A model generated the notes under the pieces. It had not been told where the DNA came from. It did no database searches and saw nothing but the letters and a program-made list of their open reading frames with translations. DNA of 31,901 nt. It comes from a virus. Lineage: Duplodnaviria > Heunggongvirae > Uroviricota > Caudoviricetes. Every line of letters begins with the position of its first letter. Position 1 is the first letter of the stretch. Where the stretch lies: IMG/VR virus record IMGVR_UViG_2537561827_000016. One strand, written 5' to 3'. The translations under genes and the position numbers were made by a program. This document shows positions 3,925 to 31,901 of this stretch, piece by piece.

Positions 3925-4196
3925 GTATTCGTATTGAAATTGGCGAACGTTATGTCGTTACCAGTGACAGCTTTCAGTTTATTCTCCACGAGAGAAAGAG
4001 AGCGGAAAGCGGTAAAAACGCCGGTCAGGAATGGCTGGCAGTGGTTGGTTATTACCCGAAATTAAGCCAGCTCGTTTCCGGCCTGATGCATCACGATATT
4101 CTGACCGGAAGCGCAAAATCTTTTGCTGATTTAAACGCGCAGGTTGAGCAACTCAGCAAGCGTTGTTCAGAGGCTTTTGGCTCATATGGCCGTTAA
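3921..4196 (+). CDS. Hypothetical early protein (P2 orf83 position)
   Basis: 91-aa ORF immediately upstream of and overlapping the A gene start. Confidence 0.5.
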   Translation: MSIRIEIGERYVVTSDSFQFILHERKRAESGKNAGQEWLAVVGYYPKLSQLVSGLMHHDILTGSAKSFADLNAQVEQLSKRCSEAFGSYGR

Positions 4197-6462
4197 AGCC
4201 TCCGGGCGTTTTGTCCCTCCGTCAGTATTTGCCGCAGGCACCGGTAAGGCGTTTACCGGTGCTTATGCATGGAACGCGCCACGCGAGGCTGTCGGGCGCG
4301 AAAGACCCCTTACACGTGACGAGATGCGTCAGGTGCAGGGGGTTTTATCCACGATTAACCGCCTGCCTTACTTTTTGCGCTCGCTGTTTACTTCACGCTA
4401 TGACTACATCCGGCGCAATAAAAGCCCGGTGCACGGGTTTTATTTCCTCACATCCACTTTTCAGCGTCGTTTATGGCCGCGCATTGAGCGTGTGAATCAG
4501 CGCCATGAAATGAACACCGACGCGTCGTTACTGTTTCTGGCAGAGCGTGACCACTATGCGCGCCTGCCGGGAATGAATGACAAGGAGCTGAAAAAGTTTG
4601 TTGCCCGTATCTCATCGCAGCTTTTCATGATGTATGAGGAACTCAGCGATGCCTGGGTGGATGCGCATGGCGAAAAAGAATCGCTGTTTACGGATGAGGC
4701 GCAGGCTCACCTCTATGGTCATGTTGCTGGCGCTGCACGTGCTTTCAATATATCCCCGCTCTACTGGAAAAAATACCGTAAAGGGCAGATGACCACGAGG
4801 CAGGCATATTCTGCCATTGCCCGTCTGTTTAACGATGAGTGGTGGACTCATCAGCTTAAAGGCCAGCGTATGCGCTGGCATGAAGCGTTACTGATAGCTG
4901 TCGGGGAGGTCAATAAAGACCGTTCTCCTTATGCCAGTAAACACGCCATTCGTGATGTGCGTGCGCGCCGCCAGGCAAATCTGGAATTTCTTAAATCGTG
5001 TGACCTTGAAAACAGGGAAACCGGCGAGCGCATCGACCTTATCAGTAAGGTGATGGGCAGTATTTCTAATCCTGAAATTCGCCGGATGGAGCTGATGAAC
5101 ACCATTGCCGGTATTGAGCGTTACGCCGCCGCAGAGGGGGATGTGGGGATGTTTATCACGCTGACCGCGCCGTCAAAGTATCACCCGACTCGTCAGGTCA
5201 GAAAAGGCGAAAGTAAAACCGTTCAGCTTAATCACGGCTGGAACGATGAGGCATTTAATCCAAAGGATGCGCAGCGTTATCTCTGCCGCATCTGGAGCCT
5301 GATGCGCACGGCATTTAAGGATAATGATTTACAGGTCTACGGTTTGCGTGTCGTCGAGCCACACCACGACGGAACGCCGCACTGGCATATGATGCTTTTT
5401 TGTAATCCACGCCAGCGTAACCAGATTATCGAAATCATGCGTCGCTATGCGCTCAAAGAGGATGGTGACGAAAGAGGAGCCGCGCGAAACCGTTTTCAGG
5501 CAAAGCACCTTAACCGGGGCGGTGCTGCGGGATATATCGCGAAATACATTTCAAAAAATATCGACGGCTATGCACTGGATGGTCAGCTCGATAACGATAC
5601 CGGTAAGCCGCTTAAAGATACTGCCGCGGCTGTTACCGCATGGGCGTCAACGTGGCGCATCCCGCAATTTAAAACGGTTGGACTGCCGACAATGGGGGCT
5701 TACCGTGAACTACGCAAATTGCCTCGCGGCGTCAGTATTGCTGATGAGTTTGACGAACGCGTCGAGGCTGCTCGCGCTGCCGCAGACAGTGGTGATTTTG
5801 CGTTGTATATCAGCGCGCAGGGTGGGGCAAATGTCCCGCGCGATTGTCAGACTGTCAGGGTTGCCCGTAGCCCGTCGGATGACGTTAACGAGTACGAGGA
5901 AGAAGTCGAGAGAGTGGTCGGCATTTACGCGCCGCATCTCGGCGCGCGTCATATTCATATCACCAGAACGACGGACTGGCGCATTGTGCCGAAAGTTCCG
6001 GTCGTTGAGCCTTTGACTTTAAAAAGCGGCATCGCCGCGCCTCGGAGTCCTGTCAATAACTGTGGAAAGCTCACCGGTGGTGATACTTCGTTACCAGCCC
6101 CCACACCTTCTGAGCACGCCGCAGCAGTGCTTAATCTGGTTGATGACGGTGTCATCGAATGGAATGACCCGGAGGTCGTGAGGGCGCTCAGAGGTGCATT
6201 AAAACATGGCCTGAGAACACCAAATCGCCAGCAAAGAAACGGAAGCCCGTTAAAACCGCATGAAATGGCACCATCGGCCAGACTGACCCGGTCGGAACGA
6301 ATGCAAATTACCCGTATCCGCGTTGACCTTGCTCAGAACGGTATCAGGCCGCAGCGATGGGAGCTTGAGGCGCTGGCGCGTGGGGCAACCGTAAATTATG
6401 ACGGGAAAAAATTCACGTATCCGGTCGCTAATGAGTGGTCGGTTTTTTCAATTAAACAATAA
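4186..6462 (+). CDS. A: Replication initiation endonuclease A (rolling-circle nickase)
   Basis: About 758 aa from ATG 4186 (MAVKASGRF, the P2 gpA N-terminus as recalled). HWHMMLF HUH motif and a downstream tyrosine-containing region; very close to P2 A. The ORF track's upstream TTG start at 4144 is not preferred. Confidence 0.92.
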   Translation: MAVKASGRFVPPSVFAAGTGKAFTGAYAWNAPREAVGRERPLTRDEMRQVQGVLSTINRLPYFLRSLFTSRYDYIRRNKSPVHGFYFLTSTFQRRLWPRIERVNQRHEMNTDASLLFLAERDHYARLPGMNDKELKKFVARISSQLFMMYEELSDAWVDAHGEKESLFTDEAQAHLYGHVAGAARAFNISPLYWKKYRKGQMTTRQAYSAIARLFNDEWWTHQLKGQRMRWHEALLIAVGEVNKDRSPYASKHAIRDVRARRQANLEFLKSCDLENRETGERIDLISKVMGSISNPEIRRMELMNTIAGIERYAAAEGDVGMFITLTAPSKYHPTRQVRKGESKTVQLNHGWNDEAFNPKDAQRYLCRIWSLMRTAFKDNDLQVYGLRVVEPHHDGTPHWHMMLFCNPRQRNQIIEIMRRYALKEDGDERGAARNRFQAKHLNRGGAAGYIAKYISKNIDGYALDGQLDNDTGKPLKDTAAAVTAWASTWRIPQFKTVGLPTMGAYRELRKLPRGVSIADEFDERVEAARAAADSGDFALYISAQGGANVPRDCQTVRVARSPSDDVNEYEEEVERVVGIYAPHLGARHIHITRTTDWRIVPKVPVVEPLTLKSGIAAPRSPVNNCGKLTGGDTSLPAPTPSEHAAAVLNLVDDGVIEWNDPEVVRALRGALKHGLRTPNRQQRNGSPLKPHEMAPSARLTRSERMQITRIRVDLAQNGIRPQRWELEALARGATVNYDGKKFTYPVANEWSVFSIKQ

Positions 6463-6663
6463 TGACTACTACTGCAGTGTTGTGGGAATGTTATAGTGTT
6501 TGTGGAATTTTTCTATGAAAAACAATGAATTAATCTGTTTTTCATATTGAGCTAATTTTTTATGGCCACAGTTGTTAAAAAGTGAGAACATAATCTTGTT
6601 CAAAACCTGCTTCTATATACGGAGGCTTTCGCTATAATACGCGGTCGGTTTTAGGAGGGGATA

Positions 6664-7608
6664 ATGCCAACAGTAGTTTCACTTTTTTCTGGATGCGGTG
6701 GTTCCGATGCGGGGGTTTTGAGAGCCGGCTTTGATGTGCTTATGGCCAACGATATCTTGCCGTATGCGCGCGATGTTTATATTGCCAATCATCCAGAAAC
6801 TGATTACATATTAGGCAATATTGCTGATGTAACTACTTTTCCTAAATCTGATTTGCTGGTAGGTTGTTATCCATGTCAGGGATTCAGCCAGGGTGGTGCG
6901 CGTAAAGCCGATCGAAAAATTAATACTCTTTATTTAGAGTTTGCTAGAGCTTTAAACAATATAAAGCCTAAAGCTTTTATAGTAGAAAACGTGTCTGGTA
7001 TGGTTAGAAAAAATTTTGAGCATTTGTTATCTGACCAGATCAGGGTTTTTACTGAAGCAGGTTATACTGTTTCCGCAAAAGTTTTAAATGCGGCTGAATA
7101 TGGAGTAGCGCAGGAAAGAAAAAGAATATTTATCGTAGGAATCCGTAATGATTTCAAAGTTAAGTACGAGTTCCCTCAGCCAACTCATGGGCCAGCAACT
7201 GGCGTCAACTATGTTACTATTAAAGATGCTATAGGGCATTTACCTGAATGGCCAGAAGGGGAATTTTATGATATGGGATTCCATTGGTATTATATGTCTC
7301 GCAATCGTCGCCAGGATTGGGATCAAATTTCAAAGACAATAGTTGCTAATGCAAGGCATATGCCGTTGCATCCTGTCAGTCCTCCGATGGAGAAAGTAAG
7401 AACTGATGAATGGAGATTTGTTGAGGATCGGAGAGCTCGCAGATTCAGTTTTCGAGAGGCAGCACTATTACAAGGGTTTGAGGATCTAGTGTTTCCAGAA
7501 ACAAATGCTGCAAGTCTTGGCATGAAATACACGGTGGTTGGTAATGCAGTGCCTCCGCCGCTTTTTGAAGCTGTAACGAAGGCATTGCCAATAGAATTAT
7601 GGGATTGA
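6664..7608 (+). CDS. DNA (cytosine-5)-methyltransferase
   Basis: Canonical C5-MTase motifs in order: FSGCGG (I, AdoMet binding), PCQGFS (IV, catalytic Cys), ENV (VI), QERKRIF (VIII), REAALLQGF (IX) and GNAVPPPLF (X). AGGAGGGG RBS upstream; TATAAT at 6633-6638. Confidence 0.9.
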   Translation: MPTVVSLFSGCGGSDAGVLRAGFDVLMANDILPYARDVYIANHPETDYILGNIADVTTFPKSDLLVGCYPCQGFSQGGARKADRKINTLYLEFARALNNIKPKAFIVENVSGMVRKNFEHLLSDQIRVFTEAGYTVSAKVLNAAEYGVAQERKRIFIVGIRNDFKVKYEFPQPTHGPATGVNYVTIKDAIGHLPEWPEGEFYDMGFHWYYMSRNRRQDWDQISKTIVANARHMPLHPVSPPMEKVRTDEWRFVEDRRARRFSFREAALLQGFEDLVFPETNAASLGMKYTVVGNAVPPPLFEAVTKALPIELWD

Positions 7609-7615
7609 TAAGCTA

Positions 7616-8605
7616 TTAAGGCTCTGGATTTAATGTATAAAGCTCTTCCTCAAATTCGCGAAACCAATCAGAGGTAGTTATCGCTTCCCATTGGTTTGCC
7701 TTATCAAGTAGATATATGATTCTCAACCTATCTAATAATAATACCCCAGCGGTTGCGTGTGTGCTTACCCATTCGCCATTTGCTTCCCGATAGAAAACAG
7801 GCGTGAACATTGTTGATGGATGCTGGAACGCAATTTGGAAATAGGTGGTCAGTTTTAACACGTTAGCCTCTAATGTTTTGCTTGGCCACCCTGTTTCTTG
7901 TGCACCACATTGACCAAGAATTCCATAGTTGCTAGTTTGACCATCAGGAAATTCCACTGTAGCAATTAGGTCAAACCCGGCATCACCAGATGTGGGAGCT
8001 CTATTTATTTCCCTTGTGTTTAAACTACAAACTCCAAGATCTTTTCCTAAAGTTTGTAGAGCTGTCCGAAGATTTGTTCCATAATAATTTTGCCTATCAT
8101 CGGAGTTAGCATCAAAAATTCTTACGGTGCCATGTGCAGGTAAGAGAGAAATCATTGCTACTTTACATACTCTGGCAAAGCTCTTTGCCCAACGTTGTGC
8201 TGCTCCTTTAATCGACTTAAAGGATCTAAGTCTAGAGCAGCAAAGAAGAAAAACATATATTCGTTGTTGTTGGTTTAGATTTTCTTTAATAATTATCTCA
8301 TCACCTGAAATTATAAATGGATATATTTTTCCAAGAGCACTTTCTCTATATTCGAGTTGTGTCCAAACATCTTCGAGTTGCTCTTCAAAACGATCATTTC
8401 TCTCAGCGTCTCCATTAATTTCTTCTTCAGAATTACATTCTTCATCAATTTCTTCAACGCTTGTTATGCCGAATTTTCTTACTGAATCTAAATCATTTTT
8501 ATGTAGTGAGTTACGTCCGGTATAATTAATTACCGTGAGTAACTCGGCTAAATCTGCAAACAAATGAGGAGAGTTGGGATGCATAACTCCTACTTCAAAA
8601 GTCAT
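7616..8605 (-). CDS. Hypothetical protein; candidate effector (possible restriction endonuclease) convergent with the MTase
   Basis: About 329-aa ORF ending 7 bp from the MTase stop, tail-to-tail; overlaps the upstream ParB-like gene by about 11 nt. Acidic cluster EEIDEECNSEEEINGDAERNDRFEEQLED. No family recognised by eye. Start chosen at ATG 8605 after the GAGG RBS; 8608 is an alternative. Confidence 0.6.
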   Translation of the reverse strand: MTFEVGVMHPNSPHLFADLAELLTVINYTGRNSLHKNDLDSVRKFGITSVEEIDEECNSEEEINGDAERNDRFEEQLEDVWTQLEYRESALGKIYPFIISGDEIIIKENLNQQQRIYVFLLCCSRLRSFKSIKGAAQRWAKSFARVCKVAMISLLPAHGTVRIFDANSDDRQNYYGTNLRTALQTLGKDLGVCSLNTREINRAPTSGDAGFDLIATVEFPDGQTSNYGILGQCGAQETGWPSKTLEANVLKLTTYFQIAFQHPSTMFTPVFYREANGEWVSTHATAGVLLLDRLRIIYLLDKANQWEAITTSDWFREFEEELYTLNPEP

Positions 8606-9716
8606 CATCACCTCTGCTATTTTTCTCTGCTATTTCAGAACCTATAAGCTTAATATGTTTATTGATTCTTCGTGCTACTTCATGGGCCTGTCTATCATAC
8701 TCTACCGTGGCAACCATGCCTGCTGCATCTATCAAAGCTGCTTCAACTTGATAAAGTAACTGGAGAAAGTCCTTAGTAATATCAGATGTCAATTGATAGG
8801 CAACTGCGAGTGGAGCCCCCATTCGGAATTGCTCCAATGCCTTAGGGCTACTTACAACAGCAGCTAGTTCTCTTAAATTACGTGATTCTCCTACACGAGT
8901 TTTTTTATCCTCGCCTTTTTTATATAACCATTCAGTTAGTTCTTTTATTTCTTTGTTCTTTAAACTCTTAGAATTGATGATAGGATGACTTGGTATTGTG
9001 TCTCCATCGTCTTCGATTGAAACTCCGACAAACTGGCCTAACCGCTCATCAGCAAGTGCTGTTGATAATACTGAAAATTTAATCGTTTCTTCATCTAGCT
9101 TTTCAATACCATAAAAATCATTTTTTTTAATGATTTCATACACCGCTAAAGCGTCTAGGTTACGCTTGATATGATCCCTACGACTGCCAATAGCTCTGGC
9201 AACCTCATAGTAGCGTAGCATTGGATCCAGATTTGCATTGGTATAATCAAAAAGCTGTTTAATATATCGAGCTTTTGATAAGGGTTCCCATTGTTTGACA
9301 CCAGTAATATGTCTGAAACCAAGGTACGGAAGAATCTCTTCTCTTGTTTGGCGCTCAATGACAGGAACACGATCGACCGTATGTTTTGCATTTGATGCAA
9401 TTTCTCGTAGTCGAGCACTTGGATTTTCACATAGTGTCGGATCGCGGAATAATTTGACCGCGGATAGGCGACGGTTTCCTTCAACTACAATGTACTTCCC
9501 CGGCGCTCCACTATCAGGAATGACAATCAATGGTTCTCCAGGGAAAAAACCATTTTCCGCAATAGCACTCATTAAGTCTTCGATAGATGTTGAGGTTGCT
9601 ATGTAGTTAATCATTCCCAATTGGTCACGAGACACGCCTTCAGGAAGTCTTGGGTTTTCTGTGTCAAGTTCCAAATCATCTAGCGGAACATAAAGTATTT
9701 CTGAATCAGCAATCAT
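8595..9716 (-). CDS. ParB/Srx-like nuclease-domain protein
   Basis: N-terminal region ILYVPLDDLELDTENPRLP ... PLIVIPDSGAPGKYIVVEGNRRLSAVKL resembles the ParB N-terminal fold (PNPxQPR-like box followed by a GxRRxxA box). C-terminal roughly 230 aa unassigned. First ATG at 9716 with GGAG RBS; the ORF track's TTG start at 9755 is not preferred. Confidence 0.7.
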   Translation of the reverse strand: MIADSEILYVPLDDLELDTENPRLPEGVSRDQLGMINYIATSTSIEDLMSAIAENGFFPGEPLIVIPDSGAPGKYIVVEGNRRLSAVKLFRDPTLCENPSARLREIASNAKHTVDRVPVIERQTREEILPYLGFRHITGVKQWEPLSKARYIKQLFDYTNANLDPMLRYYEVARAIGSRRDHIKRNLDALAVYEIIKKNDFYGIEKLDEETIKFSVLSTALADERLGQFVGVSIEDDGDTIPSHPIINSKSLKNKEIKELTEWLYKKGEDKKTRVGESRNLRELAAVVSSPKALEQFRMGAPLAVAYQLTSDITKDFLQLLYQVEAALIDAAGMVATVEYDRQAHEVARRINKHIKLIGSEIAEKNSRGDDDF

Positions 9717-9942
9717 CTGGATCTCCGTTGAACATGTCCACGAGAAGGAGCACAAAGTTATTTCATAACATGCAATATACTCATTCTGTAGCCATAAATG
9801 AATTATTCATGATGTAAGATTCGCGTTGATGTGCGTGAATTCGCAAGTAATTATACAGCAAGGTTTGATTGGGTATCGTCAGCACCAGTGCGGTTCCAAC
9901 GTACTCATGCAACTGCATTAAAACCGCCCCATGAAGCGGGCG

Positions 9943-9961
9943 GGCGAGGCGGGGAAAGCAC
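9943..9961. other. cos site (19-nt cohesive end, P2-type)
   Basis: GGCGAGGCGGGGAAAGCAC matches the P2 cohesive-end sequence as I recall it, in the expected position just beyond the portal gene Q. Confidence 0.7.
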
Positions 9962-10101
9962 TGCGCGCTGGCGGTGGTGCTGATTTTATTTTTTCAGCGT
10001 CTGAGCGCGTCTTGATGGCGTTTAGATTGTGCGCCGGGGCGTTGGTGTGTCTACGGGGTGTTTTGTGCGGTGGTGAGCGTGTGAGGGCGTGATGACGGGG
10101 T

Positions 10102-10125
10102 GTAAAAAAGCCGCCCGCAGGCGGC
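10102..10125 (-). terminator. Rho-independent terminator after Q (end of the P-Q operon)
   Basis: Hairpin GCCGCC-CGCA-GGCGGC preceded on the plus strand by AAAAAA, which is a T-run after the hairpin on the minus strand, directly downstream of the Q stop. Confidence 0.6.
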
Positions 10126-10130
10126 GATGT

Positions 10131-11165
10131 TCAGCCGTTGTCAGTGTCCAGTGAGTAGTTTTTAAAGCGGATGACCTCCTGGCCGAGCCAGCCGTTTATT
10201 TCCCGAATCCTGTCCTGTAACGGGATAAGTTCATTGCGGACAAAGACCTTTGCCACTTTCTCAATATCACCCAGCGACCCGACGTTCTCCGGCTTGCCGC
10301 CCATCAACTGAAAGGGGATGCGGTGCGCGTCCAGCAGGTCAGCGGCGCTGGCTTTTTTGATATTAAAAAAATCGTCCTTCGTTGCCACTTCACTGAGCGG
10401 GATAATTTTAATGCCGTCGGCTTTCCCCTGCGGGGCATAGAGAAACAGATTTTTAAAGTTGTTGCGGCCTTTCGACTTGACCATGTTTTCGCGAAGCATT
10501 TCGATATCGTTGCGATCCTGCACGGCATCAGTGACGTACATGATGTATCCGGCATGTGCGCCATTTTCGTAATACTTGCGGCGGAACAGCGTGGCCGACT
10601 CATTCAGCCAGGCAGAGTTAAGGGCGCTGAGATATTCCGGCAGGCCGTACAGCTCCTGATTAATATCCGGCTCCAGCAGGTGAAACACGGAGCCGGGCGC
10701 GAAGGCTGTCGGCTCGTTGAAGGACGGCACCCACCAGTAAACATCCTCTTCCACACCACGGCGGGGATATTTTGCCGGTGAGGTTTCCAGCCTGATAACT
10801 TTACCGGTGGTGCTGTAACGCTTTTCCAGAAATGCATTACCAAATACCAGAAAATCCAGCACAAAGCGGCTGAAATCCTGCTGGGAAAGCCATGGATGCG
10901 GGATAAATGTCGAGGCCAGAATATTACGTTTGACGTAAATCGGTGAGCTGTGATGCACGGCAGCACGCAGGCTTTTCGCCAGACCGGTAAAGCTGACCGG
11001 TGGCTCATACCATCTGCCGTTACTGATGCACTCGACGTAATCCAGAATGTCACGCCGGTCGAGTACCGGCACCGGCTCACCAAAGGTGAATGCCTCCATT
11101 TTCGGGGCGCTGGCGGTCATTTTTTTTGCCGCAGGTTGCGGTGTTTTCCCTTTTTTCTTGCTCAT
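10131..11165 (-). CDS. Q: Portal protein
   Basis: 344 aa, same length as P2 gpQ; sequence matches the P2 portal as recalled. Confidence 0.93.
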   Translation of the reverse strand: MSKKKGKTPQPAAKKMTASAPKMEAFTFGEPVPVLDRRDILDYVECISNGRWYEPPVSFTGLAKSLRAAVHHSSPIYVKRNILASTFIPHPWLSQQDFSRFVLDFLVFGNAFLEKRYSTTGKVIRLETSPAKYPRRGVEEDVYWWVPSFNEPTAFAPGSVFHLLEPDINQELYGLPEYLSALNSAWLNESATLFRRKYYENGAHAGYIMYVTDAVQDRNDIEMLRENMVKSKGRNNFKNLFLYAPQGKADGIKIIPLSEVATKDDFFNIKKASAADLLDAHRIPFQLMGGKPENVGSLGDIEKVAKVFVRNELIPLQDRIREINGWLGQEVIRFKNYSLDTDNG

Positions 11166-21276: not shown

Positions 21277-21880
21277 TTCGCGACTGCTGCCGACCGGCTC
21301 ATCACCGCTTGAAATTGCTGCCGCAAAAGCCTGTGCGGAAATTGAAAAAACGCCGGTCAGTATTCGTGAGCTGTGGAACCCGGACACCTGCCCGGCAAAT
21401 CTGCTGCCGTGGCTGGCGTGGGCCTTTTCGGTCGACAGGTGGGATGAAAAGTGGCCGGAAGCGACAAAACGCGCCGTTATCCGCGATGCCTATTTCATCC
21501 ACTGTCATAAGGGTACTGTCGGCGCAATCCGGCGTGTTGTGGAGCCGCTCGGCTATCTGATTGAAGTGAGGGAGTGGTGGCAGCTCAACGAGGAGCCGGG
21601 GACGTTCCGTATCGTTGTTGGCGTGCTTGAGCAGGGTATTACCGAAGAAATGTATCTGGAGCTGGAACGTCTCGTTGCTGATGCAAAACCGGCGAGCCGC
21701 CATCTGACGGGACTGGCTATCAGTTTAAGTACAACCGGCAACATTTTTGCCGGAACGGGATGCTATCACGGTGACGCCCTGACGGTTTATCCCTACACCC
21801 CGGAGGCCATTATTGTCGGAGGGGATTATTTCCCGGCCTCGGTCATTCATTTAATTGATAACCTGAGAGTAAACGCATGA
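21269..21880 (+). CDS. I: Baseplate protein I
   Basis: ORF overlapping J end and H start; P2 gpI position. Exact start uncertain. Confidence 0.82.
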   Translation: MSDSRLLPTGSSPLEIAAAKACAEIEKTPVSIRELWNPDTCPANLLPWLAWAFSVDRWDEKWPEATKRAVIRDAYFIHCHKGTVGAIRRVVEPLGYLIEVREWWQLNEEPGTFRIVVGVLEQGITEEMYLELERLVADAKPASRHLTGLAISLSTTGNIFAGTGCYHGDALTVYPYTPEAIIVGGDYFPASVIHLIDNLRVNA

Positions 21881-22596
21881 CAGTGAAATACTACGCCATT
21901 CTGACTAATCAGGGCGCAGCACGACTGGCTAACGCGACGATGCTCGGCAGTAAGCTGAATCTGACGCAAATGGCCGTTGGTGATGCGAATGGTGTATTAC
22001 CGACACCAGACCCGGCACAGACAAAACTGATTAACCAGAAACGCATTGCACCGCTGAATCTTCTGAGTGTTGACCCTAACAATCAGAGCCAGATTATTGC
22101 GGAGCAAATTATCCCTGAAAACGAGGGAGGATTCTGGATCCGTGAGATTGGGCTTTATGATGATGAAGGCGTACTCATTGCGGTGGCGAACTGCCCGGAA
22201 ACGTACAAACCGCAGTTGCAGGAAGGCAGTGGTCGTACCCAGACTATCCGCATGATTCTGGTTGTCTCGAATACCGAAGCCATCACGCTGAAAATCGACC
22301 CGTCGGTAGTACTGGCGACCCGTAAATATGTGGATGACAAAATCTCAGAACACGAACATTCACGACGACACCCGGATGCATCGCTGACCGCAAAAGGTTT
22401 TACTCAGTTAAGCAGCGCAACCAACAGCACGTCTGAAACACTGGCCGCAACGCCGAGAGCGGTAAAGGTCGCGTATGACTTGCTAACGGGAAATATACCG
22501 CACAGGACGCGACCACAGCGCGAAAAGGTCTTGTCCAGCTCAGTAGCGCCACCAATAGCACTTCTGAAACGCTGGCCGCAACACCGAAAGCGGTGA
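21877..22596 (+). CDS. H: Tail fibre protein H, N-terminal fragment (gene interrupted by apparent frameshift)
   Basis: N-terminal region with the conserved GFTQLSSATNSTSETLAATPRAVKVAYDL motif of P2-type tail fibres; reading frame is lost near 22480 and runs to a stop at 22596. Confidence 0.8.
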   Translation: MTVKYYAILTNQGAARLANATMLGSKLNLTQMAVGDANGVLPTPDPAQTKLINQKRIAPLNLLSVDPNNQSQIIAEQIIPENEGGFWIREIGLYDDEGVLIAVANCPETYKPQLQEGSGRTQTIRMILVVSNTEAITLKIDPSVVLATRKYVDDKISEHEHSRRHPDASLTAKGFTQLSSATNSTSETLAATPRAVKVAYDLLTGNIPHRTRPQREKVLSSSVAPPIALLKRWPQHRKR

Positions 22597-23777
22597 AGTC
22601 TGCCTATGACAATGCTGAAAAACGTCTTCAGAAAGATCAGAACGGCGCGGATATTCCTGATAAAAGATTATTCCTGCGCAATATTGGAGCAACAAATTCA
22701 ACAACCATGTCTTTTAGTGGTGGTACAGGATGGTTCAGGCTGGCAACTGTAACCATGCCACAGGCCAGTTCCGTGGTTTACATAAGTCTGATTGGTGGTT
22801 CTGGATATAATGTTAACTCCCCTATGCAGGCTGGTATATCTGAACTTGTTCTTCGTGCGGGAAATGGGAATCCAAAAGGTCTTACTGGTGCGTTATGGCG
22901 ACGGACATCGGTTGGATTTACTAATTTTGCATGGGTGAATACATCCGGTGATACCTATGATGTTTATGTTGAAATAGGTAATTACACCACACGTGTTAAT
23001 ATTCAGTGGGATTATACCAGTAACGCCAGCGTAACGATTCATACATCACCATCTTATACAGCGAATAAACCAACAGGCCTGACAGATGGAACTGTATATG
23101 TAATTTACAGTTCACATATTAAACCTACTGCTGCTGACCTTGGCTTGAGCGATGCAAGTGGATACGTGGGACGCTTGGTGAATACCCGGGTTTTCACGTC
23201 ATCAGGTACGTACACCCCGACGCCAGGAACAAAACGGATTAGGGTCACAATAACGGGCGGCGGTGGCGGAGGGGGCGGCTGCAAGGCTATATCCAATAAT
23301 GAAACGTTTTTCGGTGCTGGCGGTGGGGCCGGTGGAACAATAATTTCAATAATGACCCCGATACAGAATAGTTATCCAGTCACTATCGGCGCAGGTGGGG
23401 CCGGTGGTGTTAGTGCGACGAACGGCACCAGTGGCGGGAATAGCGTATTCGCATCGTTAATTGCTCCTGGTGGCGCAGGTGGCGGGAAAGTGGGAATTAC
23501 AAACACAAACGGCGGTAACGGAGGTGTGCCGAGTACTGGCGATATCCGCATCACTGGTGGAAATGGAGGCGACGGTCAGTCCGGAAATATCAGCGTCAGT
23601 GGTGAAGGCGGAACATCGTACTGGGGTGGCGGTGGACGCGCAGGCGCTGGCGGTGGCGTTAGCGGTAAGGCATATGGTTCAGGCGGAGGTGGTGCATACG
23701 ATGCCGGTTATAGCGGAACCAGTATGACAGGCGGGAAAGGTGCCGCTGGGATTTGTATTATCGAGGAGTTTGCATAA
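22593..23777 (+). CDS. H: Tail fibre protein H, C-terminal fragment with Gly-rich distal domain
   Basis: Coordinates follow the ORF track (GTG at 22593). The same frame is open from 22479 and encodes LANGKYTAQDATTARKGLVQLSSATNSTSETLAATPKAVKSAYD, continuing the H motif. C-terminus is glycine-rich, including an eight-glycine run. Confidence 0.75.
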   Translation: MKSAYDNAEKRLQKDQNGADIPDKRLFLRNIGATNSTTMSFSGGTGWFRLATVTMPQASSVVYISLIGGSGYNVNSPMQAGISELVLRAGNGNPKGLTGALWRRTSVGFTNFAWVNTSGDTYDVYVEIGNYTTRVNIQWDYTSNASVTIHTSPSYTANKPTGLTDGTVYVIYSSHIKPTAADLGLSDASGYVGRLVNTRVFTSSGTYTPTPGTKRIRVTITGGGGGGGGCKAISNNETFFGAGGGAGGTIISIMTPIQNSYPVTIGAGGAGGVSATNGTSGGNSVFASLIAPGGAGGGKVGITNTNGGNGGVPSTGDIRITGGNGGDGQSGNISVSGEGGTSYWGGGGRAGAGGGVSGKAYGSGGGGAYDAGYSGTSMTGGKGAAGICIIEEFA

Positions 23778-31259: not shown

Positions 31260-31901
31260 ATGGAAAAAGTTATAATTGAGCTTGATAATCGTTGGGAGTT
31301 AGCTGATTTCGCGGTCTTAACGAAAGAGTATTTGCAGCTATATGGTTTTTTTTATGGCCTAAAAGGAGGATCAAGAGGATATTCAACAATGCCTTGGGAG
31401 GGTGGGCACAGTGTAGTGAACTTTTTTAGAGGGGCTTACAGTGCGACTCCACCAGATTTACGTCCTGTAGTGAAAAAAATTCAGTATGCCTCTCCTGGCT
31501 TTATTGAATTGTCTGCTCTTATTGATATCTCTTGGCAGATTGCTGAGTTAGTTACTGCTGTTGGTGGAAGTATTCTGGCTGCCAACAAAGTTTACGATCA
31601 GGTGATGCGTACATATCGACAAAGAGAATGGGCAAAGTTGAAATCAGAGAAGCTGCGTATACAGAATCAAATTAAAGAGATTGAACTTGTTTCTGACGCA
31701 GTTAAATCACTTGAATCTGTGATGGCACTTAGTGAAGAACAACGTAAAAACTTGGTTCAACTATCGGGGGCAGATGAACTGGTTCAGTTAAAGATACTTT
31801 TGGCTGTTTACCGACGGTTATCTCCTCTTGTTGAGTTGCAAAACAGCGGGAAAGCTAATTTTTCTGCAGGGAAAAATAAAAATTTAAAAGCGTCCGATTA
31901 A
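31260..31901 (+). CDS. Hypothetical protein, AT-rich, C-terminal coiled-coil-like region
   Basis: 213-aa ORF with complete stop at 31899-31901, preceded by an AT-rich intergenic region. Not the fieF gene that follows cpxP in E. coli K-12. No recognised domain. Confidence 0.55.
   Translation: MEKVIIELDNRWELADFAVLTKEYLQLYGFFYGLKGGSRGYSTMPWEGGHSVVNFFRGAYSATPPDLRPVVKKIQYASPGFIELSALIDISWQIAELVTAVGGSILAANKVYDQVMRTYRQREWAKLKSEKLRIQNQIKEIELVSDAVKSLESVMALSEEQRKNLVQLSGADELVQLKILLAVYRRLSPLVELQNSGKANFSAGKNKNLKASD

Follow-up and report, generated by a model that had tools for sequence, protein, structure and literature searches.

What are three AT-rich genes doing between the replication gene and the cos site of a P2-like prophage? 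The question was raised by positions 6,463 to 9,942 of a 31,901-nt stretch of viral DNA (Caudoviricetes; IMG/VR record IMGVR_UViG_2537561827_000016), and this whole stretch is called the window below. An initial annotation had read the three genes as cargo and as a candidate undescribed restriction-modification (R-M)-like or anti-phage system. Comparison of the sequences led us to a related reading, to which we give a probability of roughly 60%: the cassette is prophage cargo, a restriction-like defence module that has three components, is based on methylation and probably also acts in addiction. Judged by homology, it is related to the defence system PD-lambda-5 through its ParB module, with a different predicted effector and a different methylase. 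The gene anatomy, folds and motifs, the near-obligate linkage and co-evolution of the genes, and their hotspot or mobile-element context were observed directly. The three genes and their junction are as follows.

6664-7608, plus strand: C5-cytosine DNA methyltransferase, 314 aa, M.HaeIII-like (match to PF00145)
7616-8605, minus strand: 329-aa protein of an unannotated family, with an N-terminal winged helix and a C-terminal PD-(D/E)xK-like fold from fold matches; putative effector nuclease
8595-9716, minus strand: ParB/Srx-fold protein, 373 aa, with a predicted nucleoside triphosphate (NTP)-binding N-domain, a helix-turn-helix (HTH)-like middle, a helical C-terminus and an acidic ..DDDF tail
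8595-8605, minus strand: 11-nt overlap of the ParB stop and the nuclease start, sequence ggtgATGATGACTTTTGAagt

An open reading frame (ORF) scan of the window confirmed the coordinates of all three ORFs as first annotated. The methylase and the 329-aa gene lie tail-to-tail with 7 nt between their stops, and on the minus strand the end of the ParB-like gene shares 11 nt with the start of the 329-aa gene (ATGATGACTTTTGA); this stop/start overlap suggests translational coupling of the two genes. The block is 3.5 kb long and sits between P2 gpA and cos/portal. Its GC content was 0.34-0.44 across 6501-10000 versus 0.52-0.60 in the flanking DNA on either side, in agreement with the earlier description of an AT-rich cargo block in the P2 A-to-cos hotspot; the flanking genes are gpA and the portal gene. 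H-NS binds AT-rich DNA, and the cassette itself could therefore be H-NS-silenced.

Linkage of the three genes was assessed in viral contigs anchored on the methylase at an identity of at least 69%, which gave 80 loci; three end at a contig edge, leaving 77 assessable. Homologues of the nuclease-fold and ParB-like genes directly adjoined the methylase in all 77. When the viral loci were anchored on the nuclease-fold gene instead, the methylase was present in 33 of 33 and the trio was kept, with one contig ending before its ParB gene. The linkage is far beyond chance. A nuclease profile search of bacterial genomes returned 16 loci; the ParB gene preceded and overlapped the nuclease gene in every locus with upstream sequence, and a methylase 67-77% identical lay convergent downstream in 8 of the 11 with enough sequence. 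Among 80 non-identical trios, 78 were convergent; their stops lay a median of 1 nt apart, and an overlap of the stops by 4 nt was the commonest arrangement. The other two formed a co-directional methylase-ParB-nuclease operon. The ParB and nuclease genes were on the same strand and abutting or overlapping in 80/80.

The trio recurs in varied settings. Coliphage Wphi carries it at the P2 hotspot, annotated as orf98/orf96/mth, and Salmonella 186-type prophages carry it in the gpA-portal hotspot. It was also found in vB_EcoM-12474III, at a different genome position in Pseudomonas phage vB_PaeM-D14A, and beside integrases in elements of Pseudomonas nitroreducens and Burkholderia vietnamiensis. This recurrence across phages, hosts and positions argues for a self-contained mobile module, and the linkage bears out the early view of a self-contained methylase plus two-gene operon. 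The complete cassette was carried by 48 of 5,426 complete E. coli genomes (~1%), and the examples listed were at least 99.8% identical; one end of the Yersinia phage HQ103 genome matched it at 99.9% identity. In Yersinia phage L-413C (locus L019, 207-1199) a 330-aa ParB-like remnant, 62% identical over residues 9-303, continues straight into orf91; that hotspot has lost the nuclease and methylase genes, which points to a decayed copy of the cassette.

The three proteins diverge at very different rates. Across the 80 non-identical trios, median pairwise identity was 73% for the methylase (minimum 59%), 35% for the ParB-like protein (minimum 19%) and 28% for the nuclease-fold protein (minimum 18%). 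Methylase identity ranged from 59 to 100% over these trios, and the methylase target-recognition region was likewise conserved (median 69% identity). Identities of the ParB-like and nuclease-fold proteins rose and fell together (Spearman 0.88); for the methylase against the ParB-like and nuclease-fold proteins the coefficients were 0.13 and 0.11. The same pattern was seen in a single comparison of Wphi with the window, where the methylase was 76% identical, orf98 (ParB) 34% (3e-54) and orf96 (nuclease) 25% (5e-24). By these comparisons, the ParB-like and nuclease-fold proteins appear to evolve as one unit, with a single methylase type kept as its partners diversify. R-M systems typically have a conserved methylase and a fast-diverging endonuclease. 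Functional coupling of the three genes, as first proposed, finds support in the linkage together with the co-evolution.

The methylase is a complete enzyme by profile, covering positions 2-322 of 324 in PF00145 at 5.5e-65, and it also matches TIGR00675 dcm at 1.4e-56. Its translation shows the motifs FSGCGG, PCQ, ENV, QxRxR and GNAVPP. The nearest solved relative is M.HaeIII (1.4e-48), with an end-to-end alignment that includes the target-recognition region; the arginines aligned to HaeIII R225, R227 and R243, which take part in base recognition in the HaeIII structure, are conserved. A GGCC-like target might be read from this, as a lead and not a result. Among the best 25 of 63 PADLOC matches of the methylase, the top ones were DruM and MTase_II, and PD-Lambda-5_B was not among these 25. 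Within the same 25, Druantia type II DruM models scored highest (1.1e-113), above any Type II methylase model; the cassette holds no other Druantia gene besides this DruM-like methylase.

The 329-aa protein gave no match in Pfam, NCBIfam, PADLOC or PDB sequences, and it belongs to PHROG 3984, whose function is listed as unknown. Its family falls into 1,242 clusters when grouped at 50% identity, and every member is a stand-alone protein some 320-350 aa long; Pfam scans of 35 alignment members and ten distant representatives revealed no consistent family. Structure comparison placed the protein more clearly than its initial label of unrecognisable would suggest: the N-terminal domain matches winged-helix proteins, and the closest structures to the C-terminal domain are the modification-dependent endonucleases MspJI and AspBHI, giving a PD-(D/E)xK-like fold. 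A separate Foldseek search also placed MspJI at the top (E 4.5e-3), followed by BsaWI. Eight residues are invariant across all nuclease subtypes (D208, D212, Q232, C233, K243, D292, R293 and R295), a set compatible with a variant PD-(D/E)xK site in which the lysine is displaced. The spacing D212-x19-Q232 resembles the MspJI motif D-x20-QxK, with the lysine not at Q+2. From these fold models, the likely nuclease of the cassette is the 329-aa protein and not the ParB-like protein, to which a nuclease domain had first been given.

The ParB-like protein of the window had no Pfam match of its own, though many of its homologues carry a precomputed match to PF02195 (ParB N-terminal domain). It has a ParB/Srx fold and an HTH-like region, with invariant or near-invariant motifs ENPR, VVEGNRRL, GFRHITGVKxWEPL and GESRNLR; the second contains the GxRR nucleotide-binding motif kept across the superfamily. 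On this modelled fold it is better described as an NTP-binding and DNA-binding ParB/Srx protein than as a nuclease. In PADLOC it matched 25 PD-Lambda-5_A models, the best being PDLC04013 (4.9e-28), whose alignment joins residues 22-295 only to model positions 7-277 of 440; it also matched the candidate PDC-M38A. Of the searches suggested at the outset, PADLOC yielded this partial PD-Lambda-5_A match, for the ParB-like protein only, and Foldseek pointed to MspJI for the 329-aa protein. The acidic tail ..DDD-F of the ParB-like protein is conserved (8595-8611, minus strand), and the codons for this tail overlap those for the conserved M-x-F with which the nuclease starts. The tail resembles the C-terminal tip of SSB. 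Its conservation may reflect the gene overlap and translational coupling, a protein-interaction tail, or both.

PD-lambda-5 consists of a ParB/HEPN protein and a D12-class N6-adenine methylase, and it gave broad protection with an active methylase (Vassallo 2022). The cloning host lacked the mrr region, and the authors called the system a compacted prophage 'RM+Abi' (Vassallo 2022). Like it, the window cassette is prophage-borne and combines a DNA methyltransferase with a protein that has a ParB N-terminal domain. However, the window ParB-like protein is homologous to the ParB N-terminal module of PD-lambda-5 A only, and the HEPN-like C-terminal half (model position ~280 to the end) is not present in it. 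The putative window effector is instead encoded by a gene of its own, has a winged-helix/PD-(D/E)xK fold and matches nothing in PADLOC; the methylase is a C5-cytosine enzyme (PF00145), whereas PD-lambda-5 B is D12-class (PF02086); and the genes converge, whereas those of PD-lambda-5 are co-directional. Two of the three testable defining features, the HEPN half and the methylase class, differ in this way, so that the cassette lies outside the PD-lambda-5 definition. Bona fide PD-lambda-5 loci were found in Marinobacter phage AS1 (L022, 3968-6433), with a full-length A and with B at 4e-103, and in Vibrio phage ValB1MD-2 (L023, 3132-5571), where A is split into an N-half (ParB) gene and a C-half gene and B matched at 2e-118. 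The effector half of PD-lambda-5 can therefore be an independent gene. Homology between the middle gene of ValB1MD-2 and the 329-aa protein was considered and dismissed (hhalign probability 0.5%); this middle gene corresponds to the C-terminal half of PD-Lambda-5_A. By analogy, the cassette plausibly works on a PD-lambda-5-like plan, and its homologous ParB module provides a relative with shown defence, in favour of the defence reading. The first assessment that no named system fits was right for the cassette as a whole and wrong for the ParB module, which belongs to the family of the validated PD-lambda-5.

A Type II R-M system of the HaeIII kind is resembled in two ways: a full-length HaeIII-like methylase is convergent with a gene of restriction-endonuclease-like fold, and a conserved methylase is combined with a fast-diverging endonuclease-like partner. 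However, every complete locus has a third gene, ParB/Srx, which co-evolves with the nuclease; the 329-aa protein falls in no described restriction endonuclease sequence family; and some ParB-nuclease pairs stand without an adjacent methylase. A standard Type II R-M system was excluded because of the obligatory third, ParB-like gene. The poor fit to standard Type II R-M or to any named system, as first judged, also showed in PADLOC, where no model covers the 329-aa protein and the ParB-like protein obtained only the partial PD-Lambda-5_A match.

GmrSD/BrxU, SspE and PD-T4-2 couple a nucleotide-binding module of the ParB/Srx superfamily to a nuclease effector in modification-aware defence. In systems of the GmrSD/SspE type, the DUF262 proteins have HNH/DUF1524 fused to them or HEPN as a partner, and they act on or sense modified DNA. 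By contrast, the putative nuclease of the window is a separate protein of PD-(D/E)xK fold, and a dedicated methylase is linked to it. Neither PF03235 (DUF262) nor HNH matched the ParB-like or the 329-aa protein in Pfam at E up to 0.1, and a DUF262 effector of the GmrSD/SspE type was rejected on both counts. MspJI and AspBHI are the top structural matches for the C-terminal domain of the 329-aa protein. However, the window protein lacks an SRA-like domain for binding 5-methylcytosine (5mC), having a winged helix at its N-terminus, and it is methylase-linked where those enzymes stand alone. Wphi orf98/orf96/mth has the identical three-gene architecture at the P2 position, with its ParB-nuclease pair a divergent subtype.

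In the preferred reading, the HaeIII-like C5 methyltransferase would place its mark on the DNA of host and prophage at a short site that by homology may be GGCC-like, and so protect self DNA. The ParB-like and winged-helix/PD-(D/E)xK proteins, from their gene overlap and co-evolution, would be made together and act as a unit. The ParB-like subunit would bind nucleotide and DNA, by analogy with the ParB/KorB CTP switches, SspE, GmrSD-type ParB-like NTPases and PD-lambda-5; on the same analogies, its switch would license or deliver the nuclease to DNA lacking the methyl mark, which would then be cut.

Several points weigh against this reading. Similarity of the methylases partly governed the choice of trios, and this exaggerates the conservation asymmetry; the nuclease-anchored viral set repeats the asymmetry between methylase and partners. 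Three bacterial loci from methanotroph metagenome-assembled genomes (L003, L008 and L013; Methylococcaceae, Methylovulum and Crenothrix) hold intact-looking ParB-nuclease pairs, with nearly all invariant residues retained and no adjacent C5 methylase. Unless a methylase is located elsewhere in those genomes, such pairs are awkward for a classical restriction enzyme. The fold-match scores for the 329-aa protein were moderate, and the structure that it matches best, MspJI, belongs to the modification-dependent enzymes. Finally, no functional study of the cassette was found in the literature by system, domain, accession or phage name, and none is given in the main text of Rousset 2022 or in the two HQ103 papers. 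Apart from these points, L003 was seen to neighbour a Type I R-M specificity subunit and an AAA ATPase, and L008 a resolvase.

A more specific proposal, which we hold tentatively, is that the cassette represents a distinct R-M-like immunity class, in which a nucleotide-gated ParB/Srx clamp or switch is obligatory for an MspJI-like nuclease and one HaeIII-like methylase is reused. One methylase serving many co-diversifying ParB-nuclease pairs would imply that the pair reads, or is licensed by, methylation status and not sequence.

In a rather unlikely alternative, the system is not a classical restriction system but senses methylation or is abortive. The ParB-nuclease pair would then read 5mC positively, or monitor the loss or inhibition of methylation, and indiscriminate attack on DNA would kill the infected cell. 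A constant methylase with freely diverging partners is easier to understand if the partners read a mark or state, because otherwise each ParB-nuclease pair would have to re-evolve identical sequence specificity. The nuclease domain is nearest to the modification-dependent MspJI and AspBHI, SspE (stimulated by phosphorothioate) offers a parallel for positive reading of a mark, and the ParB module is common to PD-lambda-5, the 'RM+Abi' of Vassallo et al. However, neither an SRA-like nor a known 5mC-reading domain was detected in the protein, whose N-terminus is a winged helix, and ParB-nuclease pairs occur without an adjacent methylase.

The defence reading already allows for addiction, and a purely selfish addiction module, stabilising its mobile element by post-segregational killing with no meaningful anti-phage role, is improbable. 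Its logic of a toxin-like nuclease and an antidote-like methylase agrees with the constant location on mobile elements, in integrase-proximal or hotspot positions, and with the decayed remnant in phage L-413C. However, the hotspot is one whose tested cargo is mostly defensive, and addiction and defence are compatible in R-M systems.

Partition was considered for the ParB-like protein, whose ParB/Srx N-terminal domain with a GxRR motif is shared with ParABS systems. No ParA-type ATPase occurred in or beside the cassette, the neighbours being the nuclease-fold gene, the methylase, gpA and portal, and the same held for the 80 non-identical trios; a scan of 6400-10150 for parS-type repeats gave only short, scattered two- or three-copy matches. 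A ParABS system was rejected for lack of both ParA and parS-like repeats. HQ103 persists in Yersinia pestis as a plasmid-like carrier state at 21 C under H-NS control (HQ103 papers). The least probable explanation is that the methylase shields phage DNA from host restriction or regulates genes while the other two proteins help to maintain, replicate or partition the phage or its plasmid state: the 99.9% identity to the cassette of the plasmid-like HQ103, the genuine ParB fold with its HTH-like region and the putative partition system carried by about one quarter of P2-like hotspots (Rousset 2022) speak for it, but there is neither a ParA-type ATPase nor a parS-like repeat array, the cassette also lies in integrated prophages and integrase-borne islands of other genera, the ParB-like gene of viral contigs is always coupled to the nuclease-fold gene and the methylase and not to partition genes, and the HQ103 papers neither discuss the cassette genes nor tie them to the carrier state.

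The position of the cassette between gpA, cos and portal in P2, which is P2 defence hotspot #1, is enriched in defence systems (Vassallo 2022; Rousset 2022). The exact cassette is catalogued in Table S5A of Rousset 2022, and the tested-systems table of that study has no ParB or methylase entry. The description as undescribed was in this sense only partly right: the trio had been recorded there and in Wphi as orf98/orf96/mth, and it was not in the tested-systems table. In the literature searched, no functional study of the Wphi genes was found either. The cassette is catalogued and has long been visible in Wphi. The same Table S5A lists for the P2 hotspot a 'DUF262 + DNA_methylase + HEPN' arrangement (WP_000351260 + WP_001697730 + WP_000373633), which may be another ParB-superfamily/methylase/effector combination of one theme.

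If the cassette defends its host, a widespread ParB-dependent branch would be added to methylation-based immunity, present in about 1% of E. coli and in Salmonella, Pseudomonas and Burkholderia. The validated and mechanistically opaque PD-lambda-5 would be linked to a tractable DNA-nuclease version of its logic, and an unannotated family of more than 1200 clusters at 50% identity would gain its first defined function. The cassette would offer a clean system for the role of the ParB/Srx nucleotide switch in discrimination between self and non-self. An explanation would be found for the 'methylase + hypothetical + ParBc' entry that recurs in catalogues of the P2 hotspot; current defence finders would miss the cassette or call an orphan methylase. 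Its 5mC mark may also affect the transformability of carrier strains and their compatibility with McrBC and Mrr.

The remaining features around the cassette are listed by position.

4144-6462: gpA, replication gene A (Phage_GPA, 8e-122)
6463-6663, plus strand: region upstream of the methylase, with a candidate -10 TATAAT at 6633-6638 and a Shine-Dalgarno AGGAGG at 6653-6658, both read from the sequence
9717-9923, minus strand: upstream DNA of the ParB-nuclease operon; GGAG as ribosome-binding site ahead of the ATG (9716), and TATAAT at 9855-9850 as a candidate -10 that lacks a good -35, both read from the sequence
9924-9964: right-hand edge of the cassette, with a terminator-like hairpin at 9943-9924 on the minus strand (terminator scan) and cos at 9946-9964
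10131-11165: portal gpQ (profile match)

The sequence ggcgaggcggggaaagcac at 9946-9964, just beyond the cassette, is presumably the P2 cos cohesive-end sequence. A consensus promoter scan found sites no more numerous than in shuffled sequence and did not list the methylase -10 candidate; the promoters at the cassette are therefore candidates only. A 44-aa ORF (6469-6603, minus strand), absent from the PGAP annotation, precedes the methylase gene and points away from it.

In E. coli strain 67-1 the PGAP annotation gives the same three genes (WP_001143636, WP_000142509 and WP_000559725), and in the near-identical locus there cpxP is followed by the integrase. Both ends of the window run beyond the phage backbone: positions 1-501 on the left are cpxP (annotated 'Periplasmic protein'), and 31260-31901 on the right hold an ORF that is hypothetical in strain 67-1. 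The window is therefore an E. coli prophage integrated at the cpxP site and not a free HQ103 genome. The tail-fibre gene H of the window (21877-23777) is interrupted: its two ORFs, 21877-22596 and 22593-23777, are not in the same frame. When aligned with the intact 721-aa gene H product of strain 67-1, the window encoded residues 1-205 in its frame 1 and residues 290-721 in its frame 3, indicating a frameshift and the loss of about 250 nt from a stretch with internal repeats. The prophage may have a defective tail fibre, or the assembly may have collapsed at gene H.

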